Positions 23,469 to 62,051 of a stretch of 64,000 bases of DNA are shown in pieces. Both the position numbers and the translations under genes were made by a program. The stretch comes from Psammoneis japonica (taxonomy: Eukaryota), in the NCBI GenBank assembly GCA_008632985.1, contig QPGO01000097.1, forward strand, positions 1 through 64,000, read 5' to 3'. Under the pieces are notes generated by a model that searched no databases, was not told where the DNA came from, and worked only from the letters and a program-made list of their open reading frames with translations. Numbering within the stretch: the first letter of the stretch is position 1; each line of letters opens with the position of its first letter.

Positions 23469-25536
23469 TTGACCTACGGTAGGTCCGTCTACCGGTGCGC
23501 ACCTGCGCGCGCCCTGCTCTGTCGCTGCTTTCCCGGCTTTCCGTCCCAGCTCCATGATGCCACGTGTAAAAATTAACCCCCGTCCAAACACCCACTTCGA
23601 TCGACTAACAGCACACAGATACGAAGTTCACCACACTTTTGGGGGCCTAGAATGGGGGTGAACGTCAGTCACCACCCAATCACTGGAATTGACTCTCGCA
23701 CTTTCCCGTGTGATGAAGGTGCTCCACGAAAAGTCAGTTCCATTTTCAAATGCCAGATGCCATGAACAACACATGCCCACTGCATTCTCGTCAGACATCG
23801 GTTTAAAGAGCAGGAGACGACAATGCTCATGTCTTGTGTGTTTTGTGGCTACATTGGGGGTCAAAGTCCAACCGCTCTTCCAAAAATTTTGAGTCGCGTG
23901 GGTCATGCGGGGTTCAAGACATGTGGCTCAATGTGCGATGAAGGGAAATTGACCCTCCTTTTCTTGACACTGAGATCAGATGACAACATCAACACAAGAC
24001 CCATTTTGTGGCTGTGCGCCATTCTCCAATCCATGGCTGGCCTCCTGACAGCTGCATTTGACCTCTTTGGTGCCACAAATTGGCGATGCAATCCATGAAC
24101 ACTCACTTGCAAGCGCCGCACTTTTCCATTTTGAGGTTTGACATTTGTGTCTTTGCGATGAATCTAGAGTGGACGCGAGCCAGGGAGGAGCTCCATTCAG
24201 TGCTGTTTGTCATTCTGTGGAACAGCAGCATCAGAGTGATGTTGTCAACATTGTTTGGCTTTTTTTTCTTGAGCCGCATGGCAACTTCATTCCTGCATTT
24301 TCACTCCCATCCACCCGACTCTCTACCACTCAAGAATGCTTGGCTGAATGCATTGCAGCTGCTTTGTCAAAGTCTTAAAAACACTCGTCAATGCCATTTC
24401 TCAAATGGGTTTGACAATGCAACGACGACGTTGGATTTGTCGATTTGCTCATGCTGGGAAAGACAACAAGAAAACTGGCTGCGGCATCTCGCGCACGTGT
24501 GCACGGTCATTGGACTGTGCAGGTGTGTGCGCATGTGCAAGGTGCAAGCAGAACATGCGCAGAATTGCTGCTGAGTGAGTTGACATGCGGTGGATTTTCC
24601 GCCGGCACACAATCTGCGTGGTCCACATGGAAGATAAATTTGTGTCCATCTCCGAAGCTTTCACATGTCATTAAAATTTCTTTTGTCTTTTAAACATGTG
24701 TGCCACAGTTCAAAAATCTTGCAGAACACCCCGAAAGAACTCTGGAGTCTGGACAAAAAAAATTTCCACTCAACAGTGCGAACAGGGTTGTCGCGAAGCG
24801 CTTCTCAAAACAACCTCAGATTGAACACAGTGAAAAATCGACTGTTGGCAGAACAGAGTCACCATGGGCAAAACAGATCCCCGTCCTTTGAGCGCAATGA
24901 CAGCAGCACAACAACGCACAACAACACCATGGCGAGCAATGCAAACGCCGTTCACTTGTCTGCCAGCTGGCATTTCCAGACAAGATCAAAGCTGTTGGAA
25001 TGCATTTGTGTGCTTCATTCCTGGGTCAAGTTGGGTTTCTTCTCGTTGCTTGTTGTCATGTCACTTTACAACGTCTTGACCCACGCCGTGTTTTTTGCTT
25101 TTCTTGCTTCTGCTCGATCGCGCGCGTGCCACCGAACAGCTTTTCCTGCAGGGTGTGGCTAGTTGCTCATCACATCGAACCCAAACGTGCGCAACCAACT
25201 AGCCCTGCCCCGGCCAACTCATGTCCACATGCATGTGCATGTTCCACAAGTAAAAATTCCCATTCCACAGCTCCCCTAAAACTCCAACCACCAAAAACCA
25301 AGGGCACGGAAACGCACTTTTGGCAGCTCTTTTTCTCCGCACAAAAAACACGCGTTTTGACGACTCGACCATGACGATGCCTCGTGGTTCTTCCCCATCG
25401 CCTTCCCAGGACGCCGATCCCACTGATGCCATTGATGACAACACTGACACAGCAGGTGATGTCATCATTCCGGTTCTCGCAGGTGTGACACATGCAAAAT
25501 AAGATGCTGCAAACTCACACTGTTGTTTGAACGCTC

Positions 25537-26010
25537 CACTGCCTCCCACAGATGCCATCACGAATTCCAACGCCGCACCTGCGTTTCGGGCCCCTGGCAT
25601 GCCCGATGCTGTTGCTCCTGCCCTTGCTGCCACAGGCACTGTTGACACTGTCATTGGCTTTTGCCAACAACGTCCACAAAGAAATGCCAACAACTCACAC
25701 TTCTTTCATTCTCGCCCCACCGCCTGCCACAGATGCCATCACGAACTCCAATGCCGCACCTGCATTTCGGTCCCCTGGCATGCCCGACACTGTTGCTCCT
25801 GCCCTTGCTGCCACAGGTGCTGTTGATGCTGTCACTGGCTTTTGCCAACAACATCCACAATGAAATGCCAACAACTCGCACTTCTTTCATTCTCACCCGC
25901 CGCCTGCCACAGACACCATCACGAATTCCAACGCCGTGCCTGCATTTCGGTCCCCTGGCATGCCTGACACTGTTGGTCCTGCCCTTGCTGCTGCAGGGGC
26001 TGTTGACACT
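25537..26010 (+). repeat. ~180-bp tandem repeat, about 2.6 copies
   Basis: ccacaga(tg/ca)ccatcacgaa...cccctggcatgcc...gcccttgctgc recurs at ~25541, 25721 and 25901. Confidence 0.85.
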
Positions 26011-27400
26011 GTTGTTGTTTTTGCTTTGGAAGGAGCACAATGGATGACAGCAGACCAGGAAACCCGCGCAACCATGGCCTGCTGATGGACGAGTGTTGGT
26101 GTCATGGCTCTCATGCTTTCCATGTTTGTTCATGGTTTTCTGGTTTTGGTTCAAGGAAACTTGCAGCCCGTCAGGCAAAGACATGGCAATCAATTTTTCA
26201 GATGTTGCAAGCATGAACACCCGTGTTGCACAAGTGTTCAGTGGGCTCTTTGCCTGCCCTTTGCTGGCCTGCAACATCAATGGACATGAACAGTGCCTCT
26301 TGGCTGGCTCTCGAGTGCAGTCTAATCTTTAGAATGTGCAGACACATCATGCAGTTCTCTGTAAATTAGAAACCTGATGTGGAGCAACAATTGGATGGCA
26401 GGCATGCTTTCACAGTTTTGTGATGTTTTTGCAAGTTGCTAAAATGGAGGCAGGTGGCAATGTGCTTTTGGCAAATGTGCACTGTGTTTGTCACCAGACC
26501 TTCAAAACTGGTGCCATGTCGACAGCTGTGCTGCTGCTTTGCATGCCGACACCTTCTCTGCCCGCACTCCATTGGCTGCGTCCTCCTTCACATGTTGCTG
26601 CGGTTCATCTTGACACCGAGTCTCAATCACCTACAGACAGAGGAGGTTCTGCTCAGGAATCATCCTGAGAAAGCCATCGCCACACCTCCCAGATGCTCCT
26701 CTGCCACGCCCATGCCCACGCCCATGCAAGGAGTGTCAACCAGCACATTGCTGCTCGCGGAACCCATGCCTTCATTGTTTCTTTTGTTTTTTGACATGGT
26801 TTGGGAGCTGCACCCCAGACTGTTTGAGAGACGGCTCATCAGTGCCTTCCACGACACGACGACACGAATGAAAATCCAGTTTCTCCAGGAACGCAATTGC
26901 AGGAGTGGACCAATCCCCGAGCTGCGTTTGTGTTTCAGGCACCGAATCCGGTGAACAGAAGCACAAATCTTCCGGATGGCAAATCGGCTGTGTTTGTGTG
27001 ATGACAGCGGGTGTGACGGCACCGGCCAATGCAGGAGGGACTGCCGCATCAGACATGGCAGGCAGGGATGTGTCAGGTGGTGCAGGGGACAAAGAACGGG
27101 AGGTCGTCATGGTTGAGTTGTCAAAACGCGTGATGTTTTGGTGTGTGTGCAGTCTTCCAAAAAGTGTGCTTCCACACCCTTGGTTTTTGGTGGTTGGAGT
27201 TTTAGGGGAGAACATGGTTCAGGATTTTTCTTGCTGCTGTTGGCATTTGTGTGCAAATGCATGAACAAATGTGAGGACATTTGTGTGAAAATGTGATGAA
27301 TGAGACACAAATCTGCCATGCCACCATGACATCACCACATTCTCCCCTGCCACAGGGGTGGGCTTCTTTCAGCCCTTCTGTCTTGAACTAAATGCAAATG

Positions 27401-28917
27401 TGAATGAGACAGGCACATGCACTCTGTGACCAAGTGTGCCCTCTCTGACACACGCACATTGTCAACCAACATGTCAGACATTCAAGAGGCCGTTAGAAGT
27501 CAGTTCCGATCAGCGATTGCGCTGATCGGGTCCCTTCTCGGTTCTCTCACAACCTGTTTTATCAAGTCATCTCAAGCCAGATCTTGCACTGTAATTACAG
27601 TCGTTGTTGTAGCTTGCTCATTGCACTGTCTGTTTCATGACAATGCGCAGAGTGCTGTTGAAAAGAGAGAAAGCTCATTTGTGTTCTCGTGCAGAAAATT
27701 TTGTTAGAAATCAATCGGAACCTCAGTGCAATTGTGCTTGTGAAATTGGCGATTCGGGGCAGCGTTTGTTTGAACTCGAAGCTTGTGTTGCTGCGCTTGA
27801 ATTTGTTGTTGTTTGGTCATTGATTGTTCTCATTGTGTGGATCAATTGGGAACGTGTCATTTCATCCATTGTGTGTGGATTGTTGATTCTTTGATTGCTG
27901 AAGTTGTTCATCGGTCATGTGTCAAGAAGCCTTGGAGAAAGCGTGCATTGAGCATAAAACCAAATTTGTGGACTCTGAATTGCAGGAAGTGAAGCTTGCT
28001 CAAACCTTTGATGATGGAACTAAACTTTCAAAAATGTGCCCCATTTTTGCAGGAGAACATGGAATTGAATCGCTGTTGTGTGTGGAGGACCGTTTCTGGA
28101 AGGCAGCAAGACAGTTGGATTGTGACACCGGAACAGAACTCTTTGATGCTTTTCAGGATTGCCTGCAAGGTGCCATGGAGGTGAAATGGCAGAACATCAC
28201 AGCGGGCATCCAACAGAATCAAAGGATGGCAGCTCGGTTTAATCAAGCCATTTTTCAGCCTGCTGACTGCGTTGTGTGAAACCGACAGCTCGCGATGCGA
28301 TGAAGATGTGCTTGCCTGCTTGCAAGAAACCTTGCTCCATGGAATCTGAAACTCACATTGATTGCACGGAAACCTCATTTCGTTACACTGACCGCTTGCC
28401 TGGAACCGTCCCCGAACTCACAGAGCAGGAGCAGCAGAAAAATGTTGTCTTCTGCACCTTTCCCTCAACCTGGCAGCAGTCCTGCATTCGTGCAGGCAAG
28501 AATCTTGTTGCAGATTCAATGGTGGACATTCAAGCCCACATGAGCAATGAGAAGGTGTTTGCCAATGGTCAAGACAACAAGAAACGCAAGTCCAACAATG
28601 GCGACGGAGGGAACTCCAGCAACAAGAAGGGCAACCGTGACAAGAAGGATGACAAGAGTCAACCCAAGGCTGGTGATCCATGTCCGGTCCCATGGCATCA
28701 TGGAAGACACACATGGGGCCAGTGTTGTGATGATCTAAACAACCCCAACTGTCGTGGACCTCAAAACCATGGCGGTCAAGGTGGAGGTCATGGCAGTGGA
28801 GGTCGAGGCAGAGGTCGCTTCCAAGGAGGCTGTGGTCCTGGCCGTGGTGGCGGTGGACGCTTTGGTGGTCATGGTGACCAAAACCAAGGAGGTCGCGGCA
28901 CCCATTGCAACAATTGC

Positions 28918-28955
<38 letters not shown>

Positions 28956-31900
28956 CGGGGATCAGAGTGACAATGGCAACCAAGGTGGTGGCAGCCAACA
29001 TCATCACAATGACAACAACAATCGTGGTGGCCAAGGTCAGGCCAACGGCTGTGCTGCTCAAGCAGACAATGTGAATGACAACCAGGCTCAAGGTGATGTG
29101 CACCATTTCGACATGATTGGACAAGGCCCTCTATGTCATGGAGGTGTGGTGAGGTTTCAGCCAGATGGGCAGTTTCCTTGGCAGTTCTGAGAAGAAGGAG
29201 CTGAGTGCTCCAGAGCTGAATGCTCCCAATTGCCTGCATGTGAAGCATTTGTTGAAAATGATTGTGCCATGCCTGAAAATGCACCTGAAAGTTTTGTTTT
29301 TGATTGTTTTGAAAATCCCAATGAATTGTCACCCATTGAATTTGAAGACACTGCAGAAAATTGCATGAATGAAGAGGGGGGCACATTCGATCAAGATGCA
29401 TTTGAACACAACATTCCTCTCCCCAAAATGGGTTTGCAAGTTTCGTGTGCCGCATCAATCCCATCAACACTGCTGGTTGCCAAATCGATCCAGCGTCATG
29501 AGTCGAATCGTGTGATGCACGTGCCATTTGATTCTGGTGGCCATCACACTGTGATTTCTTCTCAAGTTTTGCCTCGTGGGGCCGCACCATCTGTTGATGA
29601 GCATGGAGTGCAAGCTTTTCAAACCACAGCAGGTCCTTTCCAGTTGGGTTGCTGGGTGGCTCTGAGTGACATTGTGCCACCCAAATTTGACAAGACCAGA
29701 AGGGTTGAGACGGCTGTGTCGCTCATGTGTTTGATGCTCCGTGTGCGCATGACATTGTTTTGGGTCGAGACTTTTTAGACAAGATTGGACTCCATTTGAA
29801 TTATGATGCAAGAACTCTACATTGGTTGGACCGTGTGATTCCAATGAAGGAGCCTCGTCATTGGTCCAAGTCCTGCAACTGGTGTGTTGCACCAGATCAA
29901 ATGGATGAATTTGATGAAGATTGCACGGACAAATCGGACTACAAGTGTGATGATGGACATGACAGCTGTGTGCTGGATGCCAAGTGTGAAGCAACGGATC
30001 CTGCGGAAGTGGTTCGCAACCTGGATCACCTGACGGAAGAGCAAAAGATGAAGCTGCCAGCAGTGTTGGAAAAACACTCAACCTTGTTTGATGGAACTTT
30101 GGGCCACTGTCCTCATGAACAGGCACACCTGGAGGTGGATGAGAATGCCACACCCCATCACTCAAAACCTTTTCCTGTTGCTCGTGTCAATGAGGAAGCA
30201 TTTGAAAAGGAACTGAAACTTTTGGTGGACCCAGGAGTCTTGCAACCATGTGGACCCACAGAATGGGCAGCCGGCACTTTCATCACTCCAAAGAAGGACG
30301 GCCGAGTGCGATGGGTGTCTGATTTCCGTGAACTGAATGAGGTGCTCAAGCAGAATGTCTGTCCTTTGCTGGTTGTCCAGGATGCACTGCAGCGGAGAGC
30401 GGGGTGCAAATTCTTTGCCAAACTTGATCTCACTGTGTTCTGCTGCAACTTGGAATTGGACGATGAAAGCAAGGAGCTGGCGATGATTGCAACTCCCTGT
30501 GGAAAGTTCCAATGCTGCAGCATGGCCATGGGATTGAAACCAGCTCCAGACATTGCTCAATCTGTCATTGAAAAGATCTCACATGGCTGGCTTGGATGTT
30601 GAAACTTGTGTTGACGACATTGGCACATTTGACATTGACTTTGACTGCCATCTCTCTTGTCTTGACAAGGTGTCACATCATCTTGAGGAGAATGGATTAA
30701 AAGTCAACCCATTGAAATGCAAGTGGTGTGTCCAAGAGACAGATTTCCTGGGGCATCGGCTCACTCCAACTGGCATTGAAGCATGGAAGAAAAAGGTCGA
30801 AGCCATTCTCCGAATGCAGCCTCCACGGAATGCGGTGCAACTTTGTTCCTTTCTTGGTGCAGCAACCTGCTGTTGCAATGGGTGGCCTTGTTGTTCTCAC
30901 TTGCTTGCTCCTTTAACGGAGGCAAGAGCCAGTTCTGTTGGTCAGGTGCATGTTAGAAAGCATTCAAGGAAATGAAGGTGGCAATCACAGCGGAAGCTCT
31001 CATGGCCCATCCTAACCACAACCCACCGTTCCATGTTTGTGGACACTGGTCCAAAAAGCTCTCAGTGGCTCAATGCAGCTGTTCAATGATGGAGAAAGAT
31101 CTCCTGGCAGTCATCATGTGCTTCAAAGAATTTCGCACAATGCTGCTCGGTGCTGATGTTGCTGTTCACACTGACCATAAAAATCTCACCTTTTACACCT
31201 TTGATGCACAGCGCATCCTTTGTTGGCATCTGTTCCTTGAAGATTTTGTGCCTGCTTTTCAATGTGTTGAAGGCAAGGACAGTGTGCTCGCTGATTGTTT
31301 TTCTTGTCTCCCACACATGGATCCGCCTTTGGAGGGGAAGAGCCTTGGGCCCAACAGCAAACGCAAAGGAAAAATCATTCATTTCGAAAAGTTGGACAGC
31401 AGTGAATTGAGCAAGGCCAAGGAAGAAGAAGATTTGGAGTTGGGTGCTTGCAGGTTCAAGTGTTGCCGTGCTCCTGCCAATCCCTCTGATGAGTCTCATG
31501 CCTTTTCTTCTCTGCTCAATGAGCCTGAATTGTTTGGGTGCTTTTTGAATTGTCCAACGTTGGATGAGATGCCAAATCCTGCCGAGATGTTGCAGATACA
31601 ACAGCTCCAGTTTGAGGACCAGCAACTGAATCAGCAGAGACAACAGAACCTGCAGCAATTCGTGGTCAAGATTGTGAACCAGCGTCCTCTCATGTGTTGT
31701 CGTCTGCATTTGAATGATCCGCCTGGAGCATGGGAAATTTGTGTTCCGACTGCATTGTTGAATGACATGCTTGCGTGGCATCATCGTGTGTTGGGTCATT
31801 GTGGAGTTGTTCATCTGTGTGAGAGTGTTCGCACTCACATGTGTCACCCTGCACTGCATCGGCATTGTAATGAGTTTGTGTGCGATGCCTGTCAACGTTT

Positions 31901-33038
31901 CAAACAACTTGGTCTGGGACATGGAGAATTGCCTGAATGCCAAGCACCATTGGCTCCATGGTCGGAAGTGGCAGTTGATCTCATTGGACCATGGAAAACA
32001 CCAACTCAAGATCAAGAGATTGAACCCAGTGCCCTCACTTGCATTGATGCCATTGCTGGCCTGACTGAACTCATGTGCATTGATGACAAAACTTCTCAAC
32101 ACATTGCCAACAAGTTCCGCAACCTTTGGCCAGCTCATTGTCCCAGACCAAATCGATGCATCCATGACAACGGCGGTGAATTCATTGGTTGGGAATTTCA
32201 GATGCCATTAAACCAGGTCAGTGTCGAAGATGCTCCGACAACCTCACGGAATCCTGCAGCCAACTCTGTTTGTGAACGAATGCACCAAACAGCAGCCAAT
32301 GTTTTGCAAACTGTGGTTGCTGCTGACCCACCTTTGAACATTCAACAGGCCAAGCAAATTGTGGATGATGCCCTTGCTGCAGCCTCTTTGGCATTACAAT
32401 GCTCTCATTCAAGGTCCATGGGTGTTTCAAGCAGAGCTTCAGCATTCCAACGAGATGCAATTTTGGACCTCCCTGTTCTTTCCAATCTTGCTGCCATTCA
32501 AGCCAACCGTCAAGTGCTTGTCAACAAAAACCTGCAACAACAGAACGCAAAGCGTCATTCTTGTGATCATTTGGTGGAACAAGATGTGCTGATCAAGTCC
32601 GTGGATCCAGCGAAGCTAGAAGCTCAAGCTCATGGTCCGTTTCAAATTGCACAAGTCCATGCCAACGGGGCAGTTTTGGTGCTGCAAGCACCACACGTCA
32701 TTGAGCGGATCAACATTCATTGCGTGGTGCCACATCAGAGTTGAGGGTTTCTTCCCAATGCCTGGGTTCCCTTCTCCATGCGCATTTGGAGTTTAAATTT
32801 GAGTCAAGTGGCTCCAATGGTGCGTGTGATTCTTGCACCATGGAGGGGAAGAGTGAATGAGATGGGCACATGTGCTCTATGACCGAGTGTGCCCTCTCTG
32901 ATGTGTGCATGTTAACTGATGCATTGGACATTCAAGAGGCCGTTAGAAGTCAGTTCCAATCAGCGATTGCGCTGATTGGGTCCCTTCTTGGTTCTCTCAC
33001 AACCTGTTTTGTCAAGTCATCTCAAGCTGGATCTTGCA
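27401..33038 (+). mobile_element. Full-length, mutationally decayed Ty3/Gypsy LTR retrotransposon
   Basis: LTRs 27401-27588 and 32854-33038 (TG...CA), PPT ggaggggaagag before the 3' LTR, 5-bp TSD aaatg/gaatg. Gag knuckle CPVPWHHGRHTWGQC; protease FDSG; RT PKKDGRVRWVSDFRELN and CVDD; RNase H EKDLLA and HTDHKNL; integrase HHCC, VDLIGP, DNGGEF, CERMH and GPF. Order is PR-RT-RH-INT. Confidence 0.95.
28918..28956 (+). repeat. (AAC)13 microsatellite encoding poly-Asn in Gypsy gag
   Basis: Read directly from the sequence. Confidence 0.95.
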
Positions 33039-33365
33039 GAATGATCGTGGCTGCTGTGCGGCACACGTGCGTGTGTGTTTTGTCAGGTGCTGCCATCTGC
33101 TGTCCAACCTTGTGCGCTGTGCTGTAGTTTGACAAGACAAATGACCCTTTCCACCCGACCGTTGGGTCATTTTTTCTAGCTGTTTGAAAAATTTGAACGC
33201 ACTTGCATGGGCAAGAGCATGAAAGAGCAGTGAGCACACCCATCTCTGCTCTGCCCATAAAGCAAAAGCCAGCAGCAGAGGAAGTGCGCTGACACTGTGA
33301 AAAACTCTCATCAACTTTTAGGTTTCCATGAGAGAATGAGAGGTGTGTGAGCCCTCCATTCTCTC

Positions 33366-33620
33366 ATGGGTGTTTCTGCTTCTCAACTTTTGTCAGGAGA
33401 TCTTCTGGAAGATTTGGAAGATTCAATGGCGTGTTTTGAATTCTTGGATCCTCTGACTGCGTCAGCGCTGCAAAATGCATTTGACAGTGTCAATTTTGGA
33501 AGCAATCCATGGGGTGTGTTTTCAGCAATGGCTGACAATTGCCTTTGTTCCTGGGAAGTGGGTGGTGTGGAGAACGTCACACAAATGGACGTGGCACGCA
33601 TGAGTCGGATCGACCAAGAC
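33366..33620 (+). pseudogene. Possible Plavaka-like transposase fragment
   Basis: NAFDSVNFGSNPWGVFSAM...LCSWEVG resembles the pre-catalytic segment of Plavaka-type transposases; judged from recall only. Confidence 0.35.
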
Positions 33621-36600
33621 ACAACTCAACGCCAGACTGACAGACCAAAAATGTGCAAGACAAACCATCCGCCGACACATCACCACAACTGCTTTCTGTT
33701 CCTGTCATGCCTGCCAGTGGGAACCGACAAGACAATGTTGTTAGATGGGTCACCTTTTGATTTTACCAGGACAGCAAACACACAATGTTTGACAGACGAA
33801 AGTCTTGCCTCCTCTTTGTAAAACATGTCCATCAACAAACATCCACCTGCTGCAACTCATTCCTCAATCTTGACCACACTTTCTGGGCATGAACATGCAA
33901 ATGTTGTGGACAGGACTCCCTTGTCTCCTGGGGCAAGACAACAGTCAGGCACTTCTGGATCTGGCATTGGCAGTTCAGACCCAGTTTCTTCTTGTGCAAA
34001 TGTGCATCAATGCAAGAGTGATGGTTGGGGTTGTCCAGCCATGCCCCACACTCCAGATGCGGGAAGGTTGCCTCAAAGTCCTCCTTTAATTTTGACTCAT
34101 GTTCCACACAACCAACAAAAGTCCCAATGTTGAAAGGGACAAAGAATGCACCGTTGTCTTTCATTGCCCTGCCTGGATCCAGTGTGGTTTTCTGGAAGAA
34201 GCCTTTGCTAAATTGGCCACTGAACCGACCCTTTTGCAGCCAAAAGAAATCCATGTTGATTTCCAAGAAGTCCCCCCAAACTTTTTCAGTGGCTCATCCA
34301 CAAAGTTTGGGCTGCACACATTGCAGTTTAGGTGTCATCCTGCATGTCCGTCACTGAGAGAGGCAGTGCAGAACTTGCATGCATTGTTCCCTGTGTGGTT
34401 GCAATCACTCAACAGTTGCTGACAAGCAAGTGGCCTTGCTGTGTTGGACCGCAGCTTGGCGTTTGTGAAAACAGATGATCACTCTCATCAAGAAGGATGT
34501 CATGGTGTGGCACACTGTCAACATCTTTGGTCTGTGTCATGCACAGAAAAAGCACCTTGACCTGAGTCATGGATGGGGAAACATCGTTCCGAGTTGACGG
34601 ATCATCGTTTTCTTCATGCTCAATTTGATCTGCCAAATCAACTGGAGTGCAATCATCTTGCACCAACGTTCGAAAAGACTCAGCACCAGTTGATTCCAGT
34701 GCATCTTCTTCAAAATCAACATTCGGGTGTGGATCATCATCCTGGCCAGGCAGTGCAGGATGACACGTGTCTGTTGGATCCTCCTTTTTCATGTCTTGAT
34801 CTGGCAGATTCTCCTTTTCAGTGTCCTCAACTTGCTCTTGAGAATTGACAGGACTGTCACAATCTTTTCCTGCAAACCTCAGAGACTCTGCAGTCATTGA
34901 TGATGCACCTGTGGACTTGTCCACTGGTGTTGGAATTTTTTCCCAAAATCAAGTTCCACATTGTTTGATGCTTTGGACTGCATCGGGACCAATGAGGGTA
35001 AAGAGATGTTGGTTCTCAACACAATGTTCTTTTGTCAAGTCTCGGATTCTGTTCTCATGGCTGTCACAGGTGATGCACTCCTTGCAGTTGTCATGCAGTG
35101 TGCGGCTGTTGTGTGCATGTCCACAATTGCACATTGTTCACATGTCAATCGCACCACAGTCGTGGACGCGCACAAAGGACAGAATGATCACACAGAGTTG
35201 ATTGGAAGTCGAAAATTGCAAATGCGATTGACAGACAGATGTTGACATCTTGTGTGTCAATGGCAATCGCATCCAGACAATCTGTTGTCACAAACATGTT
35301 CTCCAAAAGGCCTTTTGTCTGCACCAATTTGCGAGCATTTCCTGGACCCTTTTTTCTCTGGCAAAGTGGTGGAAATCGGGAGTGCTGGTGTTTTCATTAA
35401 TCCAGTGGAGAAGTGATGTGATGTCAGTTGTCATCTTGTCCATTCTTTGGTTCAAAACCAAGCATCGGAGTTTGTTTTGGGAACTGTCCAATTTGCAGTC
35501 ATCCTTGTCTGCAGCTTCAGTTTGTCTCCTCTTGCCAGAAGTGTTGCTGGCAGATGCTTTGGTTGCATGGCATTGCTTGTCACCCTGTGGTGAAGCAGAA
35601 ACATCACTGTCACACACGTTGTCACCGATTTTGTCATTGTTTGCTGCAGCACAGCATGCTGCAATGAAATCATGTCCACTTGGGTTCACACAATGAGGGT
35701 GACTCCAATGTCACCAGCAGCTGTTCCAAAGGACTCCCACTGCTCGAGTGTGGGTGGGCCTGAGCAATTCTAAAAACCGTTGATGGCCAACACTGTGCAA
35801 TTTGGCAGCATTTTGGCACTCTGTGCATGAGGCATTTATGTGGAAATTACGTGCGTACAATTGACAGGGGAAGCGAGCGTGGAGAAGAGACGACGCGAGC
35901 GAAGCACGAGCGAAGAGACCGACAATGATGCAAGAGCCGCAGAGAGACGCAAAGACAGCAATCCAACGATGTTGCAAGAGGGCACAAAAGAGAGAAAAGA
36001 TCTGTTTGAGTCAGTGCCATGTCTTCAATAAAAAGAACAAAGCAAGACAACATTGGCATGCACAAAAACTTGCACAGAGAAGCACGGCACCAGCGCCTGA
36101 AAAATGACCACATCTGCGGTGACATGGAACACACAAGGAGGTGAGAACACACTTTTCTACAAATGCAAAGCAACAACGAGCAAATGACCAATGTAAACTC
36201 ACCAGTGGGGTCAAAACTCGGGGTGCCTGGATCGTCAACGGCGGGCAGGGAGGACAGATGGAAGAGAGGCAGCTGGCTCCACGGAGCAGGACGACAAAAG
36301 CAGGCGGTAGATCGGCGTGAGCAATGGTGGAAAGTCGGCGCTTGGGATCGAGTGACTGGTCCGGTCCATGCAAATCGTGGCAGTAGCTTGGAGAACGGAG
36401 GCAGCGCCATGGTGGCACGGCACAGACCGGGGAGAGAAGAAGTGCCGCGGCGGAACGGCATGGAACGGTGACGGAGCCAAAAATGGTGACGGCGATGGCG
36501 CAGACCCGTGGACTTAGACATCCCCATATTCGAGTCCTGTGCATCAAGACACGGGACAAGGAGGTTCAAGGTGAGCGCCATTGCGAACGAGAACTGGGAA

Positions 36601-39600
36601 AAAGACGCACGATTCCACGAGAATCAGAACTCACCACATTTTGAGTCATTCTGACCCATTCCAGAGCCAGGGCTCACTCACATGGCACGACCCAATGGAT
36701 CATAACACTGTCAAGCAGGGCAGGGGTCGGGAGGCGGTGTCTTACCGGTCAAATCGGCCAAAAGCGCCATTGTCGGAGGGAGCGGTGGTTGTCGATCGGC
36801 CGCTCGGAAAAATTATGAGCCATCAACCCGACCGCGCACCGTTCGGAGTCGCACAGAATTTCTCGGTACAAAATGTACACAAGTGTACGTCAGTATAAAA
36901 CACGTGTAGAAGGGGTGTAAGTAGAAACTTACTGTCTCTCTGTTGACTACGAGGAGTCTGCCGTTAAACTATACCAGTATGTATAATTCTACGTGGTAGA
37001 TTTGAATCAATCCCACCAACGTTTTTGAATTTCGATCGTAATAACGGCTTTAGGTGCTGAGATGAATATAATATATAAGTTTGAATTAAATATCATATGC
37101 AATATTAATAATTTTGAATGATTGCGCGACTGCCAGTCGGCACGAAAAACCGTCGCCAATAAGTAAACCTGCAGTACAGAAGTACTCTTTTGCAATACTT
37201 TGGTACTTCAGTCTTGCACATGAAAGCGCTCCCTAAGTAGTTAACGGTCAAATTGTATATATAAAATCCTCACAGCGGGAGACCCTATATACGCTCCCGT
37301 GTGCACTCAACGCGCCTCGGTTACGACCTTCTCGTTGGGTTGCACAATGGCGAGAACGACCCACAGCTTGTCGTGTGGCCTTCTCGTCGGGCTGAAGCCC
37401 TCCTCGTCGTCCACCCTCCTCGCTGGGGTCGTTCTCGCCATTGTGCAACCCGCCTGGTCGGTCTCCACCTCGTTGCTTGGACCCTTCTCGTCGGGTTCGG
37501 CGGGGCCGAACCCTCCTCGTCGGGCTCCACAAGTGCACAGGGCGCGTACCTACAGCACTCCATGGCACAGCAGAAACAAACAAGCGTGGCATTGCTGGGG
37601 GAATTGCGCAGTTCCTCCGAGTGCTTTGTTCCAATGTAGAAGAAGTGGCTGAAGCCAGTCTGGCAGCTTGCCATGACAGCCAGATGAGCACAACCGCGCA
37701 CGCCAAGGTCATCGCGGATGTTGTCTGCAGGTGGACAAGCAAGAGAAAGTCAGAGATTTCTTGTGACAGAAGCAGGGAAGACCACAGTCTCCTGCATTGT
37801 GTCGCCATTGGATCTCAGCAAGACAGACTCCCATGGGACTGGACAGCCATCATCAAGGAAGAATGCTTCTGTGTGGTGATGGGACAGATCACCCTTCCTT
37901 AGAGCTTGTGTGCCCAAACATTCATGAATGAACTGATTGCAGTTGCAATCAACTGCATGTGCAAAAATGCCAACCCTCGCCTGGAGGTCTCTCATGCCAC
38001 ACTTCTTCATGCAGTGATTGCCAGCCTCAGCACAACTGCCAGCCAACAATTTGACAGACCAAAGGTTGCCAACCTTGTCCATCCCAAACAAGCAAAGAGC
38101 TGCGGTTTCATTGCATGTGAACCAACAGCAATCCTCTTTGTCTTTGTGTTCATCAGCTCTGTCACCAAGGCTCATGTTCTTGAGCTGAATCGAGCATGGC
38201 TCGCTTTTAGAAACTTCGGCACCGAGTTTGTCACGTGCGGGTTGGCCAAACTGATGAGTGTGCTCCTTGTTGTTGCAGGAAGGTGGGGGATCAAAATGAT
38301 CAACGCACAACTCATCCTGGCAGAGCTGCGTGCAGTCAAAGGCATCAGCTGACATGGCCTTCACTTTGGGAATGAAATCTTCATCATCTTTGTCCATTGC
38401 AAAAATGTCAAAGCCAGACAAAGGAGATGGCATTGCTTTGCGGTTGTCTCTGACAACAAAATTCTGTCTGCAGCAACCAAAGTCAACACAACTGTTGTGA
38501 ACAGCCCCCCCCGGGGTGACTCTAATTGCAGTTCTTGTCAACTGTGCTGTGCTCCAAAACAAAATGAGTGAGTGTTCCAAAATGAATTTTGAGCCCAGAG
38601 AAATGTTTTTTCTTGAACAGCTGGTCATTGGAATGGAGTGTGGTTTGTCCAGCTGCAATCTTGGTGACACTGGGAGGGACTGCAATCAACTTGCAAGAAT
38701 GCCACATTGGATTGGGGAGTGACCTTGATGACTCAAACAAATGTGTCAAAACATGGAGGTTCACCATGAGGCAGAAATCCAAAGGGGAGTGACAGAGAAT
38801 GAGCTCTTGGTCGTTCATGTTGTCATCAACATCGCCATCTTCATCTGCACCATTGTAAAATGCATGAACACGAGGAGCAACCTTGGCAATTTGTTGGAGG
38901 CTGGGTGTGGGACACTGACATTCTGGTGGGAAACGAGCATGCCAGTCATCCACAGGAACAACAAACTGGTTGTTCATTCAATGAAGGCCGGTTGGTCGGT
39001 GGCTGGAAACATTGTCATCTGTGGTCTCATTGTCTTTGTCATCATCTGGGTCACTGATGAGTTGAGCAAGGGGGGGGGGGGGGGACTGCAAATTGGGATG
39101 GCCAGAGGGATCACAGAGATGGCAGCGGGAAGGAGGTTCCACGGCCTTCTTGGTTGTGGAGGGTGCAAGTGTGCCTGGGTGCAAACAACAACACAAATGC
39201 AAAGAATTTGTAGAGGAAAATTCAAAGAACAAATGTTTGACTGAATGAGGGTAAAAAACTGACCTTTGGCGGATCCAGATCCATCATCTTCTGACCCTTC
39301 CTTGGCACACCAAACCACGTCAAGGAGACAAACAATTTTTTCTGTTGAGGCTTGAGGTGCCTGCACGTTAGATCACAAACATGGGAGTGGGCTGTTGCCA
39401 GGTTCTTCATTTTTGGACGGTTGAGATCCTTGCAAGCATGCTTGAAGGCACAGCGCATCTGCTCTTCCACCTCTGAACCGCGGCAGGAGGCATTTCTTTT
39501 GTCCTTTGGCCTTGTTGGACATCTGATCCCGGATGGCACCTGGACCTTTCCTCAACATGTTCTTGACAATGTTGCCAGATTTTACTTTGACGTTGGCATT

Positions 39601-41699
39601 GACAGTTTGCAGGAGAATTGTCAGAGGTCATCACAAATGTCTTTGGTTTGGAGCATTGAGAGAAAACAAGTCTTGACCAATGTCAGGTGTCACCAAAGTT
39701 TGGTGCAACATGAGGGAGGAATGGAGCATTCACTGTTGATGCTGCAATGCTCTGAGTCTGCACGAAAAAAGTCAGCCTTGGCAATGAAGCTGCTCTTCTC
39801 AAGAAAGGTTGAGTGGTCACAGAGTTTTTTGGAATTTGCAAACCCATGCATGCAATCCACCATGGCAGTGAGGTTCTTGCCATGGCAGGAAAGATTGCTG
39901 GAGGACTCAATGACTTTTTGGCATTGAAGAGCAAAGCAACCAGTGCACTTGCCGACCTTTCTTTCCAGCTTGCAGGTCCAACCGCGGCTCTTGATGCAGT
40001 GGAACCCATCTTTGCACCCAAGAGATTGACCTGTGATGTCATCAACTGCTGTGCATTGCTTGAAAAATGGCACAGTCCATTCTTGGGGTTGTGCCACAAA
40101 CAAGGCAATGCCAGAAAGTCAGGGGAGGGGTTCCACTGGACACTGGAAAGATGTTTCTTCCTTGCACATTGCATTTCTGTCATCCTCCTGAAGTGTTGTT
40201 TGGCAATGCAATGTTTGCCATCACCACTTGTGAAAACAATTGTGTTGTCGTCCATTTCGATGACTTGCAAATGTGGAAAACAAATGTCAGAAAAGCCAAA
40301 CAGAAGCATGTTGAACAACAACAGAAAAATGTGGCACACAGCATTTTTTGTTAGAACTGGTTTTTCTGGCAGTCCCAAGGTTGGTTTCGGCAGCGCCAGC
40401 GGCGCCATTGTCAATGTCATCATCATTGGAAAGGCAAGCACCATGGTCAAACAACTCTTCAGAGAACTCATCATTTGCAAAGGGGAGAACATGCAGCAAG
40501 TCCGCACTGTGGCCAGAATTGATGGAACAGGTGGAATCATCATCATCGGAAGATTCCAAGGCAGCAGCTCTGGCAAAACTGCAGGAATCACAGGATGATT
40601 CTTCCTCCTTTTGGCCATCAACGTCTGCACATGCAAGAGTGCGCCCCAGGGAGCGACCAAGGCAAGTGCATGCTTTCTCCAAAGATGACAACGGAATGCC
40701 AGCAGCAGCAACAGCACTTGAGTTGTGGTGCAAAGGAGAGAGTCAAGAATGCTGCCATTGCCAACTGAAAAACAATCATTGCTGTCATCAGCGGAATCAA
40801 CTGGCTTGTCTTGGGCAGGATGGACTGGAGGAGGCAAAACAACAGGCCTCATCATTGCAACAAATGGGTGCCATGGGGCTGCACGCAATCTACGCAGATT
40901 TTGTCATGTCAATTTTGGCAAAAACAAAGAGAGCAGAAGTTGACAGGGTGAAAAAGATGCAGAAAGATTGCAGAATGGACAAAATGATTGCAGCCCAAGT
41001 CATTTGTCTCAATGCACATTGAGCAATTGTGAGTGCATCACCACCAATGAAGGGGCTGGCATGTGTTGTGCATGATGAGATGTGAGTGACTTGGATGTGA
41101 CAGTTGTGATCAGGTGAGAAAAAACATCACTGAGTGCAAACAAACAAGCAAGGGCAAAATGGACATGGGCAGCTGCATGTGCCACAAACAGGGGCATGTC
41201 CGGCATGTCAATTGTTGCATTTTTTAAGACGGAAGAGCAAAAACAACACGAGCATGTCTGGGGGCAGTGTTCAGGTGAACAATGAATGTGGGCATGTGCA
41301 AATGAATGAGAAAGGTGGGGTGAAAATAAAGGACAGCGCAAACAAACAAGTGAGGGGGGCACGGAACACATGAAGATGTGAGCCCAACAAACAATGGCAG
41401 GGGATGATGATTTGTGATTCATGTGGCTTCACACGCCTCTCTGATGACCCAAGGACAACCAAGGTTGAGTCCACTGCCTCCCTTGCCATTGCAAGGGTCA
41501 GTGCAACTCCAGCTGCAGTGCAAGTCACAATCATTGGAATGACCATACCAAGGATGAACAATCACGTCTCCTCATCTGGGGGGAGGAACACTGAAAGACC
41601 AAACAGGTCTTCGTCAATGGCCCAAGCTCAGGGACTTGGAGCCAAGAGCCACCCATCATGCCAGCTGACTCACTGTCATGTCCACAACCCCCAACTGTG

Positions 41700-50573: not shown

Positions 50574-50776
50574 NNNNNNNNNNNNNNNNNNNNNNNNNNN
50601 NNNNNNNNNNNNNNNNNNNNNNNNNNNNNNNNNNNNNNNNNNNNNNNNNNNNNNNNNNNNNNNNNNNNNNNNNNNNNNNNNNNNNNNNNNNNNNNNNNNN
50701 NNNNNNNNNNNNNNNNNNNNNNNNNNNNNNNNNNNNNNNNNNNNNNNNNNNNNNNNNNNNNNNNNNNNNNNNNNNN
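50574..50776. other. Assembly gap (N run)
   Basis: 203 N. Confidence 1.

Positions 50777-50870
<94 letters not shown>
50777..50870. repeat. (CA)n microsatellite abutting the gap
   Basis: Read directly from the sequence. Confidence 0.95.
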
Positions 50871-54560: not shown

Positions 54561-57500
54561 TTCTGGCTGGTTGCCACATGCTCCTGCCGCACTGTTGGTG
54601 CACTGGGGGTGTGGGTTAGCTTGTTGCTGGAGTTGCAGGGTGGAAGCACAGCAGCACTTTAAACATGGAATTTTGGTTTTGTTTTGAACAAGAGAGTGTG
54701 AGTTCTGAACAAGAGCCACAATGTTTTCCAGACAAAGATGAATCCACAGATGAGGGCTGGGAAGTCAACAGGAATCCAAAGGAAAAGGCTGGAGGTTGAG
54801 AGGAAGGAAAAGGCTCAGAGATTGACAGGAATCCAAAGGCACACCTCATGCAAGCAGATTGCAGCAAACAAGCTGGCTGGACAAGGGTGAAGAAACAATC
54901 TCTGGAAGGCCTTGCTGTCAAAAAAGCTGCCAAGGGCAGTCAGCTGAAAGAGGGTGCAGCAAGGTTGTGTCAGGGTCAGTGAGACAGAGTGTGCTGCTGT
55001 TGGCAAGCCATGGAACTCCAAAGCATGTCCTGGAAAAGATGGGCAAGGTCACAGCTGGGCACGGAAGCACAAAAGAGTTGAAGGAGTGGGCATGTGATGC
55101 CATTGAAGAGTCTTGGAGGACAGGCAAATAGATGCAAAGAAACCATGAGGAAGATCAGTGATCATGTTGAAAGAGTGTGTGTGCCAGAGATGCAGGTGCT
55201 CCTGCTGAGGCAGCAGAGCATTCCAGGAGAGCCAGATCATTGATCAGAAGACACCGCATCAGAGAAAGACAAGGCAATCTGGGGCAAAAAATGTGATCAC
55301 TGAGCAAAGCAGAGTGCCGTCTGCAAGATGCAGAAGGCAAAGGCATTTGATGCAATTGTGGGGCAATGCACAAAGGCCATTCATCACAAGCTTGAAGGAG
55401 TGATGGCATCCAAGGAGAGATTGTCCTGACAGCGGTCATTTGTTCACAGAGTCAGACAACATGGGCCACAGGAATCAACAGAACAGTTGACATGTTGTTG
55501 GGTGGCACAGTTTCCAAGTGTCGTCCTCCTGTGCTTGATGCACACAAGGTCAATTGATCAACAACTTGTGTGAAGGAGTGTGTTGGAACATTGGGGCCGG
55601 AGGCAGTTTTTGCAGGACAGACAGACAAAGTTGCAGTGCAGCAAGATGACATGCTTCTTTTTTCTCCAGCTTTTCCTCTCCTTTCTTTTTTTCATGAACT
55701 CAGATCGGAGCTTTCCCGGCACAAGCTCTTGCTGTCTCTGCCAGTGTCCAGTCTGCCAAGCACCTCAATTGAGGCAGTTTTTCAACCCCCCTCACTGAAT
55801 TGCTGAAACCATTGTGCCCCCCAAGTGACATCAGAGTGTTGTTCTCTGTGCTGTGAAACCTTTTCGGCTCTTTGTTTGCAGTCGACCACTCATTTTCTTC
55901 TTCACCTTGTTGGCATGCAAACATGCACATGCTAAAAAATGCACCAGTGCACTAATTTTGGGACTTTGATGATGATGCGACCGCCATTTTGCAGACTTGG
56001 GGACTCTCTCAACAATCCACCTTTAAACAAAATCATGAAACACAACAAGGACGGCCTTGTCATGCTGGTCCAAGCCTTGAAATCAAGGCGACAGTTGAGA
56101 AAAGGAGGATTCAAGAGAAAAACACAAAAAATGGCACCTCAAAAATTTGGGTCTGCAACAATGGCAAACACATGCTGCACACACTGCAGGCTGTCTTCTC
56201 TGTGGCAATGGAAGCCTGCTGTTGTGTGTGGAGCTTTCAAGGATGAGAGCATTTTTTGTGATCACAGCATCAGAGCTGCTGTCACAACAAATGACCGAGA
56301 TCACCAATCTTTGTGTTGTGTCAATTCATGTCACCAAAACCCAACAATCAACAATGACAAGCACATGACACGTTGCTGTGCATTGAATGCAAGACGATGC
56401 GGTGTTTGAAAGCAGGTCAAAGGGCTTTTTGTGAATGTGATGGGCTGTTTTCACATCCCATGTTTGTGGCCAATTTGCAGATCTAAAGATTCAAATTTGG
56501 TGCAGGCAAGTGCATTGCACATGTGAAGAAAGGTGTTTTGAGCATTGAAATGGCTTCATTGTCATTGCAGAGACTGCTTTGCACAATGGGATTGACATCG
56601 TCGTCTCTCGTGTTGTTTGCCAAAATGGCACGTCATTTTCTGTCTGTGGCACATTTTGCCCACCTCAATTGAGGCAGATTTTGCTGCCTCAATTGAGGAA
56701 AAACCCCGGTGGACTCTCTGGTGGACACCAGTGGAGTGTGCACTGTGCTCGAAGAACAAGCACAAACGAAAGTAGAACAAAGTACAAAAAGTGGAAATTG
56801 TGAGATTGAATTTTAATCTGTGATTTTTGGTTTCTCCGAACGAGTTCTCAATGGCCTGAAGCTCTTGCACCAGTCCTGCAGACCAAAAGGCCTTTCGGAT
56901 GACATGTTCATGACAACAGATTGTCCGGATGCGATTGCCATTGACAACAAGATGTCAACATCGTCTGTTGATCACACTTGCAATTTTCGACTTCCAATCA
57001 ACTCTGTGTGATCATTCTGTCCTTTGTGCGCATCCATGACTGTGGTGTGATTGACACAAATGCTGCAACATGTTCAGTCGCGGTGCCCCAAAAATCTGGG
57101 GATTCAGTCCCGGGATTTCCATTTGTGGCTGCTCTGTTTGCAGTGCCAACACACTTTCGACATGACATGATGCCACACTGTTGTTCCATGCCAAGTTTTG
57201 AAAAGGTCTCAACAGGAAACGAGTGGAAAAGGGTCTGGTCTACAAGAGACACAGCTGTCACAAGCAAGCGGGTCTGAATCCCGCATTTTTCATTTTTGAG
57301 TGCATCAAAGAGATGTTGATCCTTTGTCATCAAAGTAAAAGCTCCCATGTGAGGACCGAAATGGTTGCAATCAATTGTGTTGACATGTTGTTGATTCAAC
57401 AGACATTTGTGTCATTTGTCAACGGCTGTGTGTTTCACACGAAAAACACAATTTCTTGGTCAAATGCACAGCTTCCTTGTTCAAAAAACCTGGGATTCAG

Positions 57501-60500: not shown

Positions 60501-61924
60501 AAGGCTGGATTTTGCTGTCAGCACAGTCGTCATGCCAGACTTGGTTGCAGAGGACATGCAGAATGAAAAACCATTCACAGTGCCTGCATTCAGCAGAAAC
60601 AGCACAAACGACATCAACACACCCATTGCGACAGGCACAGAGATGTGCTGCAATGCCATCCACATTTGTCCACATGGTTTTGGGTCCAGCCAGCAGCACC
60701 GGCACATCTTCCCTTTTAGCATTTGGAGACAAGTCAACACCACAGCTGAAAGGGTTGTTTTTCAAACCCTTCTTGGTTCCGCACTTGCGCATCTGTTGCA
60801 CATCCGGTCTGTTGGTCCTCTGTCTGTTGGCCCCAAACATGCTGAGAAAAACCTCCTTCATCATTGCATTGATTTCTTCCTTGCCATTCTCCCATTGAGT
60901 TTCAGTGGCCTCTCCAATGGCGACAGTGTTGCCATCTTTGAACGGGTCGACATCATGCCAGTCACCAAGCAATGGGCTTGATGCACCATTCCTGCAAAAC
61001 GTGTCAAGCAGTGAAAAGCCCAGCGGATCGTTGACTTTGTCTGGTTGTGTGAATGGATCATGCACCCTCGTCAAAAGATCCTCGAAATCCTCAAGACAAA
61101 TGTCAGGTTCATCTCCTTTGACATTGTTGTGCACCACCTGTCGCATTGTTGTGCAGTGTGCATGCAGACAAAAGGTTGTTTTGTCACGCCCTTTGTGACA
61201 TTTAAACTGCAACACGTCGCCGTGATGCATTGGCTCTTGTCAGCAGCTGTGTGCTGCACTCCTCCCCATGCATCGCGCACCCATGCGGCTCTTTGCCAAC
61301 GTGCACTGACACTGCACGTTTTTGGCGGAACAGCGTGGGTGCGCATGAAGGAACATGCAGAACTGCAAGAGTTTTGCGCATTCGACAGCGATCAATGTTG
61401 CTGCAGACAACTCCCACTCAGGGTTTCAAACCCCTGGCCTCCTGCCCAATGGTTGCGATGAACCACTCCGCTGTGAATTCACAGTGCAGCATGCACGCAG
61501 ACAAAAGGTTGTTTTTGTCGCGCCCTTTGTGACACTTAAACTGCAACACGTCGCCGTGATGCATTGGCTCTTGTTGGCAGCTGCACACTGCAGTTGTTGT
61601 CATTCATTGCCTTCATGGCAGAAATGGCTGTGCAGTGAATGCATTTTTGTGTTTTTGAAGAGAAGCCATGGGTTTTGCTTGGCTCCGTGGCTGGCACTTT
61701 GCACAGAGTGTTGACAGAGAGTGCAAGGTTGATGGGGCTCCATTGATTTGATGTGCTTGCGGGCATGCGCTTCATCTCTTGTGCTCACCATGGTTGATCT
61801 GCCGTGCGTGGCACCGGTGCGCAACTGTCCTTCAGAATGTCGAAATCAAGTTGATGTCAGATCGACGGAATCCGGCGCCCGGAATCTCACCAGGGACATG
61901 CATGTGACAGTCGCATGCTGCAAG

Positions 61925-62051
61925 TGGTTCAAGCGAGTCCCGAATGGACGAAAACCATTTTGAGTCCCGAACACTTTGCCAAAATTTTGGCAAAGTGGAC
62001 CAAAATTTTGGCAAAGTATTCGGGACTCGCACTCGGGACTCGCTCTACTCT
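61925..62051 (-). repeat. Right inverted repeat, partner of 23342-23468
   Basis: Reverse-complement match; differences are largely TA->TG/CA. Confidence 0.9.

Follow-up and report, generated by a model that had tools for sequence, protein, structure and literature searches.

What kind of process can strip a single dinucleotide, TpA, from tens of kilobases of chromosomal DNA and yet leave the genes next to it as they were? This question is raised by the first 64,000 nucleotides (forward strand) of contig QPGO01000097.1 in the Psammoneis japonica assembly GCA_008632985.1, a stretch referred to below as the window, which carries a block of some 38 kb filled with dead retroelements (positions 23650 to 62030) and, between host genes, a smaller island of about 2.5 kb (4990 to 7480), both nearly devoid of TpA. 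What the window displays is a conversion of T:A to C:G base pairs that is specific for TpA, symmetric with respect to the two strands, later than the integration of the elements and limited to a domain. Below we lay out the evidence for each of these properties, and then weigh what kind of process may have produced them.

Composition of the block and direction of the change

When measured in 2-kb windows, the observed/expected (o/e) ratio of TpA lies at 0.01-0.11 over the region of about 24-62 kb, at 0.03 over 5-7 kb and at 0.58-0.79 in the gene flanks; repeats and genes are not alike in this respect. The o/e ratio of TG and CA in the depleted DNA is 1.6-2.3. Direct counts were made over 37,649 nt of the block, i.e. 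without a TpA-rich island at 36.8-37.33 kb and a gap of 203 N at 50574-50776, and over 22,552 nt of the flanks. The block holds 150 TpA (4.0 per kb) against 978 in the flanks (43.4 per kb), a ratio of 0.09, and the density of CpG falls to about one third (19.0 versus 57.5 per kb). At the same time, TG stands at 108.6 versus 73.2 per kb and CA at 111.7 versus 67.9 per kb. The combined decrease of TA and CG (77.9 per kb) is matched by the combined increase of TG and CA (79.2 per kb), while the remaining 12 dinucleotides occur at 0.91-1.13 times their flank density. Because loss equals gain and the other 12 are steady, it follows that the four pyrimidine-purine (YpR) steps alone have shifted, and that they were converted among themselves by transitions. 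The GC content of the block is not altered (0.45-0.54). The near-absence of TpA, the saturation with CA and TG and the TpA-rich surroundings, which formed the core of a preliminary description of this DNA made from its letters alone, are therefore borne out by the ratios as well as by the counts.

The affected zone is a single contiguous domain and not a series of elements that were mutated one by one. Its sub-blocks have a TpA o/e of 0.03-0.12, except at 35.85-37.33 kb, with a CpG o/e of 0.07-0.73 and a TG and CA o/e of about 1.7-1.9. The conversion removed 90-98% of the TpA and ends within about 100-300 bp of the neighbouring genes. The extent given earlier for the block holds, with edges that are sharper than described (about 23.65 and 62.03 kb): dense TpA ends at 23648 on the left side, and on the right TpA is back at 62017-62046. 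The smaller island had to be moved from 4.5-7.2 kb to 4990-7480; it contains 4 TpA (o/e 0.03) and has a CpG o/e of 0.22. Logan contigs built independently from a public run (X1, possibly the source of the assembly) match the window over 4,210 nt with 2 differences (31699-31937, 33010-35155, 35275-35759 and 37657-38989, listing the pieces of single-copy depth), and within the block their depth is the same as that of the flanking genes (55-116). The agreement implies that the reads carry the bases of the window.

The direction of the change can be read from a degraded Gypsy element on the forward strand, whose gag-pol region (28327 to 32831; reverse transcriptase (RT), RNase H and integrase, recognized by Pfam and by alignment with homologs) lies between a 5' long terminal repeat (LTR) at 27400 to 27588 and a 3' LTR at 32853 to 33038, which pair with each other at 84.7% identity. 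Forty intact Gypsy pols were aligned with it, and a codon was counted as a conserved Tyr codon when 15 or more homologs covered the position and 60% or more of them had Tyr. None of the 25 codons so defined is still TAY: 15 now read TGT or TGC (Cys), nine CAT or CAC (His) and one TTT. Since the Tyr codons gave rise to both Cys and His, both strands must have been mutated, and over the whole block the totals of TG (4089) and CA (4204) are nearly equal. The change depends on the neighbouring base. At the second codon position A became G in 15 of 25 conserved codons when the preceding base was T, compared with 3 of 62 after A (Lys, Asn), 0 of 66 after G (Asp, Glu) and 0 of 36 after C (Gln, His), that is 3 of 164 for the three other predecessors pooled. 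Likewise, at the first codon position T became C in 9 of 25 cases before A, in 0 of 38 before T (Phe) and in 1 of 29 before G (Cys, Trp). Most of the conserved Trp (14 of 15) and Cys (13 of 14) have been retained. At the level of the protein, the open reading frame (ORF) at 30957-32741 encodes 0.17% Tyr, 5.21% Cys and 5.38% His, where the medians of 120 intact homologs are 3.63, 1.81 and 2.98%.

The process hence converts TpA to TpG and to CpA, is specific for TpA and affects both strands about equally, as had been proposed from the composition, and A-to-G change is indeed enriched at TpA over all other contexts. The same counts contradict one of the candidate mechanisms put forward at that stage, namely error-prone patch repair of the Pol-eta type (WA to WG, with W being A or T): the density ratio of ApA is 1.04, and A became G in 3 of 62 codons after A versus 15 of 25 after T.

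The TpA that survive are not evenly spread over sequence contexts. Relative to their flank density TTAA (0.36), CTAA (0.34) and TTAG (0.29) are the commonest, and GTAT, ATAG, ATAT and ATAC (0.008-0.016) the rarest. The values are symmetric under reverse complementation; per strand, TAY was removed more fully than TAR, and TAA least of all, with 1-24 counts per class, among which some survivors may be new.

Timing and targeting of the conversion

The two LTRs of one element are identical at insertion. In the Gypsy pair, all 17 differences lie at YpR steps and no other substitution is found in 189 columns; nine of them are doubles of TG versus CA, three are exchanges between TA and TG or CA, and five are exchanges between CG and TG or CA. 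As the pair differs at YpR steps alone, YpR change appears to have outpaced the background by far after insertion. When eight repeat pairs within the block are taken together, 63 of the 94 differences are of the YpR kinds, next to 20 transversions and 11 other transitions, and in a control repeat pair in the gene flank 1 of 157 positions differs.

Copies elsewhere tell the same story. At 11 sites in the region 35.9-37.3 kb where the window has TG (six) or CA (five), TA is retained by other copies present in run X1, and thus less-mutated copies must exist elsewhere in the genome. Furthermore, in 78 relatives of the Gypsy pol from metagenomes the TpA o/e is 0.71 at the median and never below 0.45, and none contains a 1-kb stretch below 0.25, where it should be noted that these 78 were kept out of 568 confirmed loci and that the search favours intact copies. 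The Gypsy family is consequently not TpA-free by nature, and the idea that the transposable elements (TEs) natively lack TpA was dropped on the basis of the median of these relatives. The preliminary description held that the process acts on chromosomal DNA rather than during reverse transcription, and the LTR pair, the less-mutated copies and the strand symmetry all agree with that view.

With respect to targeting, two elements are particularly informative. The first is a foldback (a hairpin resembling a miniature inverted-repeat transposable element) of about 115 nt that forms a perfect hairpin. Its left copy (23347 to 23461) lies about 190 bp outside the block and has its TpA intact (DNA fold -48.4 kcal/mol, z -13.6), whereas the right copy (61932 to 62044) lies inside the mutated zone and differs from the left one by TA to TG at three sites and TA to CA at one. 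There are no further copies in the window (6 motif hits versus 0.69 expected), and the depth in run X1 suggests about ten or more genomic copies. The pair could mark the two ends of a large composite transposon, act as boundary elements or stand there by coincidence. The second is a young element that resembles a terminal-repeat retrotransposon in miniature (TRIM), on the forward strand at 19520 to 20086, with terminal direct repeats of 157 nt (99.4% identical) around 253 bp. Situated between host genes, it is unmutated (TpA o/e 0.70) in spite of a very high copy depth in run X1, and copies of it elsewhere in the genome do have TpA to CpA or TpG changes.

Much of the block is likewise multi-copy in run X1, and the parts of single-copy depth are depleted to the same degree. 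Because a high-copy element was left unmutated and single-copy parts were depleted, copy number alone is not decisive; the decisive factor is probably the position in a silenced domain, length or age, and the targeting looks domain- or chromatin-based rather than copy-number-based. The restriction to repeats that was claimed initially therefore stands in so far as a domain filled with transposons is hit and the genes are spared, but is too strong as a general rule, given the untouched high-copy element in the gene flank.

Within the block, one multi-copy element (35850 to 36800) appears at an intermediate stage, with a TpA o/e of 0.24 and a CpG o/e of 0.92; it holds ten of the 11 sites at which other copies keep TA. 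The eleventh (37255) lies in the adjoining AT-rich island of 530 bp (36801 to 37330), which was spared: it has 50 TpA (o/e 1.11) and a CpG o/e of 1.45. This island borders on CpG-rich multi-copy sequence, and a second public run (X2, recorded as 'DNA?') appears to hold transcript-like contigs of the bordering sequence.

Known systems, mechanism and alternatives

It had been thought that no described system carries this signature, which does not hold: the signature has a precedent in one alga, the chlorarachniophyte Bigelowiella natans, and the diatom is a second and distant lineage. Mettrop et al. (bioRxiv 10.64898/2026.01.13.699255) report TpA hypermutation of integrated viral DNA in mutation-accumulation lines, and the following is limited to the accessible parts of that preprint. 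There, 231 of the 302 nuclear point mutations fell in a giant-virus region and a virophage region, and 230 of these 231, every one at a TpA, were A to G or T to C; the rate was about 6e-7 per site and generation, and only some lines were affected. Before this preprint of 2026, no defence had been known that turns A:T into G:C specifically at the TpA of chromosomal DNA. The genome of B. natans further contains 124 clusters depleted in TpA and enriched in CpA and TpG, as well as 324 TpA-free coding sequences enriched for RT and DDE domains, and its authors propose a DNA adenine deaminase that is ADAT2-like; CpG, diatoms and other species do not come up in those parts of the text (10.64898/2026.01.13.699255). 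In common with that case, the one window studied here shows A:T to G:C change confined to TpA, both TpG and CpA as products and hence both strands affected, selfish or foreign DNA as the target and host genes that are spared, and RT sequence recurs in the TpA-free DNA. The two cases differ in the host and in the substrate, giant-virus and virophage inserts there, retroelements and a foldback in a diatom here; in extent, with a Rho of 0.45 in the B. natans region of nucleocytoplasmic large DNA virus (NCLDV) origin and near saturation over 38 kb (o/e 0.03-0.12) here; and in the decay of CpG, which accompanies the loss of TpA here and is not discussed in what was available of the preprint. In B. 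natans the rate was measured in real time (10.64898/2026.01.13.699255). In our search of the literature, in which subscription journals were thinly covered, no report of TpA-specific hypermutation in diatoms was found.

Three better-known systems share part of the pattern. Like the repeat-induced point mutation of fungi (RIP), a genome defence that depends on a DNMT4-related enzyme (RID), the process introduces transitions into transposons in a dinucleotide context and on both strands, destroys their reading frames and leaves nearby single-copy genes largely intact. RIP, however, changes C:G to T:A (CpA to TpA in Neurospora), and in this way creates TpA and lowers the GC content; here TpA disappears (ratio 0.09) and GC stays as it was, so that the polarity is opposite to that of fungal RIP, as had been remarked before. 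RIP needs duplicated sequence, and on this point the picture is mixed: much of the block is multi-copy, its parts of single-copy depth are equally depleted, and the young high-copy element in the gene flank is untouched. Enzymes of the ADAR and APOBEC type also act against selfish nucleic acids by deamination, leave clustered transitions and, in the case of ADAR, prefer a 5' U, but their targets are RNA or single-stranded cDNA, and their changes are strand-asymmetric and precede integration, whereas those in the window are symmetric and follow it; the contexts of APOBEC are not depleted in the block (TC ratio 0.91, CC 1.13). Some diatoms possess RID-related DNMT4 genes, with a function that is given as not known in the part of the source consulted (PMC9998398).

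The third system, decay of 5-methylcytosine (5mC), deserves more attention, as it has a counterpart in the block. Among the 50 conserved Arg codons of the Gypsy element, CGN was kept in 17 and has become CAN in 19 and TGY in nine, as expected from a CpG to TpG or CpA component. Deamination of 5mC is nevertheless unable to remove TpA, a point made at the outset that is upheld here, the loss of TpA being both more complete and more uniform than that of CpG. The extremes of the CpG o/e are 0.07 (at 45-55.5 kb) and 0.73 (at 61.0-62.03 kb, where TpA is 0.05), with TpA at 0.03-0.12 in nearly all sub-blocks. Because CpG varies from 0.07 to 0.92, if the intermediate element is counted, and TpA is near-uniform, the two losses are uncoupled. 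This suggests that the loss of TpA is the faster process and that the loss of CpG tracks age, as with methylated CpG. The loss of CpG would be best explained separately, by 5mC decay; diatom TEs are reported to be CpG-methylated via DNMT5a (PMC9998398, consulted in part).

Sequences from other sources offer hints of a broader occurrence. Among 120 near-length homologs of the Gypsy ORF, taken from public metagenome and Logan data and compared at the protein level, three, which represent the integrase region, are poor in Tyr. In the first (P0278; Tyr 0.34%) the ten conserved Tyr columns contain Cys (seven) and His (three) and no Tyr, while conserved Arg was kept in 23 of 26. The second (P0241) has Tyr in seven, Cys in three and His in one of its conserved Tyr columns, and the third (P0307) Cys in three, Tyr in two, Phe in two and Ala in one. 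P0278 shares 40% identity with the window ORF and 58% with the intact relatives nearest to it; it must therefore be a different element, probably from another organism, and, judged by its residues, it appears to have undergone TpA conversion without CpG decay; the three, in which Tyr gave way to Cys or His while Arg was kept, may together represent the same TpA process in other organisms without CpG decay. The set viral_contigs, scanned with P0278 and with the window ORF, yielded no relatives.

Taken together, the most satisfactory explanation, which we consider probable as a whole, is that a nest of dead retroelements of 38 kb and an island of 2.5 kb were hit by domain-wide mutation of the chromosomal DNA after integration, of the kind known from B. 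natans. T:A pairs within 5'-TpA-3' were converted to C:G with an equal chance on either strand, which gives TpG or CpA. Behind this we suppose an active host process, of the same kind as in B. natans, for which silenced selfish DNA would be the target, picked out by its chromatin state or domain and not by copy number alone; it would outpace the ordinary decay of methylated CpG and be distinct from it, and that decay would account for the variable loss of CpG. As to the chemistry, the route we favour is that a candidate DNA-acting enzyme related to ADAT2 or TadA, recruited to silenced DNA, would deaminate the adenine of TpA to hypoxanthine, to be read as G at replication. The tRNA substrate of ADAT2/TadA-like enzymes has U33-A34, i.e. 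a 'TA' step. Provided that the process is real, we see the case for adenine deamination by such an enzyme as evenly balanced.

TpA is its own reverse complement, and hence a start from A (A to G) and a start from T (T to C) are not separable in the sequence. The change might accordingly begin at thymine, with a dioxygenase of the TET/JBP type marking T in silenced TpA as 5-hydroxymethyluracil (5hmU) or 5-formyluracil, and with mispairing or faulty repair turning it into C; the loss of TpA would then be the footprint of a symmetric epigenetic mark, as the loss of CpG is for 5mC, and the CpG decay found alongside it in the domain would be a fitting parallel. Thymine in oxidised form is mutagenic in the direction of C. 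In dinoflagellates, 5hmU made by a TET/JBP enzyme is described as enriched on TEs and as silencing them (PMC11572971, seen in part), and studies from the 1980s, as cited in the accessible part of PMC11071213, reported a preference for TA and TC contexts where 5hmU takes the place of T. Base-resolution mapping in Breviolum, on the other hand, is said in that same source to show no sequence preference (PMC11071213), TpC shows no depletion within the block (TC ratio 0.91), and no report of 5hmU in diatoms was found, although the literature search concerned dinoflagellates only. On balance, we hold a thymine start, the chief rival, to be unlikely.

Some observations weigh against domain-wide TpA hypermutation by a host enzyme as set out above. 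Our scope is one window, and run X1 may be the very sample that was assembled, in which case its read support is perhaps not independent. The island at 36801-37330 keeps normal TpA inside the block without explanation. The contexts of the residual TpA are not an obvious match to the substrates of eukaryotic ADAT enzymes, and no deaminase domain was found in the 17 flank ORFs of at least 150 aa that were scanned. Finally, in the LTR pair the CpG changes far exceed background as well, and the 25 double differences of TG versus CA between repeat copies are not assignable to a source because TG or CA is the end product of CpG as well as of TpA. One process acting on both dinucleotides would leave such a record, yet it seems to us improbable.

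Such a single enzyme system would act by deamination on the A of TpA and on the C (or 5mC) of CpG, so that the loss of CpG would belong to one and the same hypermutation. For both dinucleotides the product is TG or CA, within the same domain and with the same edges; the LTR pair has five exchanges of CG with TG or CA plus nine unassignable doubles against a background of zero; and ADAT2 enzymes act on both A and C in DNA according to a statement of the authors in the accessible text (10.64898/2026.01.13.699255). Against this stand the range of the CpG o/e (0.07-0.92) at a near-uniform loss of TpA, and P0278, which lost ten of ten conserved Tyr and kept 23 of 26 conserved Arg. In addition, 230 of the 231 B. 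natans events are A:T to G:C (10.64898/2026.01.13.699255), and the CpG methylation of diatom TEs (PMC9998398) would suffice for the decay of CpG.

Editing of an RNA has still less room. An ADAR-like enzyme might hyper-edit double-stranded TE transcripts, with reverse transcription fixing the result; ADAR has a 5' U preference (10.64898/2026.01.13.699255) and the elements that could be identified are retroelements. Since the DNA copy is made from sense RNA alone, this predicts TA to TG on the coding strand only, whereas nine of the 24 changed Tyr codons are sense T to C and TG about equals CA overall; the 17 YpR differences arose between LTRs of one insertion, and thus after integration; a foldback that is not a retroelement and unassigned DNA between the elements are mutated too; and the domain is contiguous with sharp edges. 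The LTR divergence, the less-mutated copies and the TpA-normal relatives, together with the strand symmetry, exclude editing of an RNA or cDNA intermediate, for which we see almost no chance. An artefact, be it misassembly, miscalls at modified bases or a chemically converted library, is hardly credible in spite of the scaffold gap at 50574-50776 and of the sole DNA run that holds the stretch being perhaps the assembly's own data, since run contigs match 4,210 nt with 2 differences at the depth of the flanking genes, since errors would neither convert precisely the conserved Tyr codons to Cys and His nor halt where a nest of transposons ends and spare genes 370 bp away, and since the same bias from Tyr to Cys and His occurs in unrelated public sequences.

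A few further candidates were dropped. GC-biased gene conversion would not be specific for TpA, selection against UpA in RNA cannot account for the loss of catalytic Tyr codons in silent elements, and TA photoproducts of ultraviolet light are not restricted to domains.

If domain-wide hypermutation of the B. natans kind is indeed what is seen, its meaning may reach beyond this locus. Diatoms are distantly related to chlorarachniophytes, and dinoflagellates are grouped with both diatoms and B. natans. Tentatively, and with much reserve, one may think of TpA erasure as an old genome defence shared across distantly related lineages of one supergroup, a natural enzyme system acting on silenced double-stranded TpA that could be either a true DNA adenine editor or a heritable modification of a TpA base that parallels CpG methylation. 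Its breadth and its independence from cytosine methylation are hinted at by the diatom case, the three Tyr-poor homologs and the B. natans lines. That the footprint is saturated in a diatom would mean that the process is not an oddity of one species, that a comparison of gene content between species that have the signature and species that lack it offers a practical route to the enzyme, for which diatoms provide genetic tools, and that a second mutational force works beside CpG decay on the transposon graveyards of one major group among the marine primary producers. A natural TpA-specific A:T to G:C editor of double-stranded DNA should also interest those who build base editors. For annotation, TpA-free DNA poses a hazard, as the lack of TAA and TAG stops produces long spurious ORFs and as proteins without Tyr escape domain searches.

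Further content of the block and its flanks

A second RT-bearing retroelement, unrelated to Gypsy, lies on the forward strand at 41582 to 43917. It has the RT motifs 'KTDLANGCHHMQL', 'LPMGWANSPPLF' and 'CVDD', the last (at 42680) being what is left of YxDD, and a sub-threshold match to RVT_1. In the representative library 2,901 relatives were found, for which Pfam likewise gave only sub-threshold RVT_1, so that no class was assigned; a PDB sequence search with this RT (42200-43000) gave no hits. The element repeats the pattern of the Gypsy ORF, with 0.30% Tyr, 4.35% Cys and 9.61% His where the family medians are 2.07, 1.21 and 3.63%, and with all three conserved Tyr codons altered (CAC, CAC and TGT).

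Six-frame read-through of 23.4-36.9 kb against Pfam recovered the Gypsy RT and RNase H and nothing else, that of 36.9-49.5 kb returned no family at E<=0.01, and 45 ORFs of at least 150 aa gave no Pfam family either. A tblastn search with 120 Gypsy pols found no Gypsy element in the window beyond the one described. Of the labels that had been given to the elements at first sight, Gypsy is thus supported by Pfam, for one element, and Copia, LINE and DIRS have no Pfam support, with 49.5-62 kb lying outside the six-frame scan. Because TAA and TAG are nearly absent, long open frames occur in all six frames of the block: it counts about 60 ORFs of at least 150 aa, of which the 38 that were scanned (37.7-61.3 kb) showed no domain. 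The block further holds a tandem repeat (25512-26073) with a unit of 181 nt in 2.7 copies at 89% matches, whose differences are mostly CG versus TG or CA and doubles of TG and CA. A perfect (CA)47 microsatellite at 50777-50870 abuts the N gap and raises the local CA o/e.

Pfam detected no family in the three ORFs of at least 150 aa of the smaller island (4990-7480). A strong purine-strand asymmetry (GC skew 0.28, AT skew 0.27) extends over 6001-8000, from the right half of this island into the beginning of the pyrophosphatase gene region.

To the left of the smaller island, the first part of the host flank (1 to 4850) contains a glycosyltransferase-like ORF and a WD40 gene, with normal TpA and a CpG o/e of about 1. 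Between the island and the block (7500 to 23300) lie genes for an inorganic pyrophosphatase, Sec66, Alb3/YidC, WD40, TENA, RBM22, RING and LSm proteins, with a TpA o/e of 0.58-0.79 and again a CpG o/e of about 1, and in the right flank (62100 to 64000) TpA is normal. The flank genes are of the intron-bearing eukaryotic type. Among the best homologs of the ORF at 40-1461, all those that are named come from diatoms (Cylindrotheca, Nitzschia, Pseudo-nitzschia, Seminavis, Epithemia and Thalassiosira; 42-56% identity), and the presequence of Alb3 ends in an 'AAAFAP'-like motif, which we take to be typical of plastid targeting in diatoms. On these grounds the window is read as diatom nuclear DNA from a lineage that lacks a close relative in the protein collection.

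None of the public runs listed is registered as RNA. Run X2 leaves most of the block uncovered and gives no evidence on expression there. In the LSm gene (22585-23127), the end of which is about 370 bp away from the block edge, its contigs skip three stretches of 99-123 nt with CT..AC ends, which correspond to minus-strand GT-AG introns; the spliced joints at 22.6-23.1 kb imply that this run behaves as a transcriptome.

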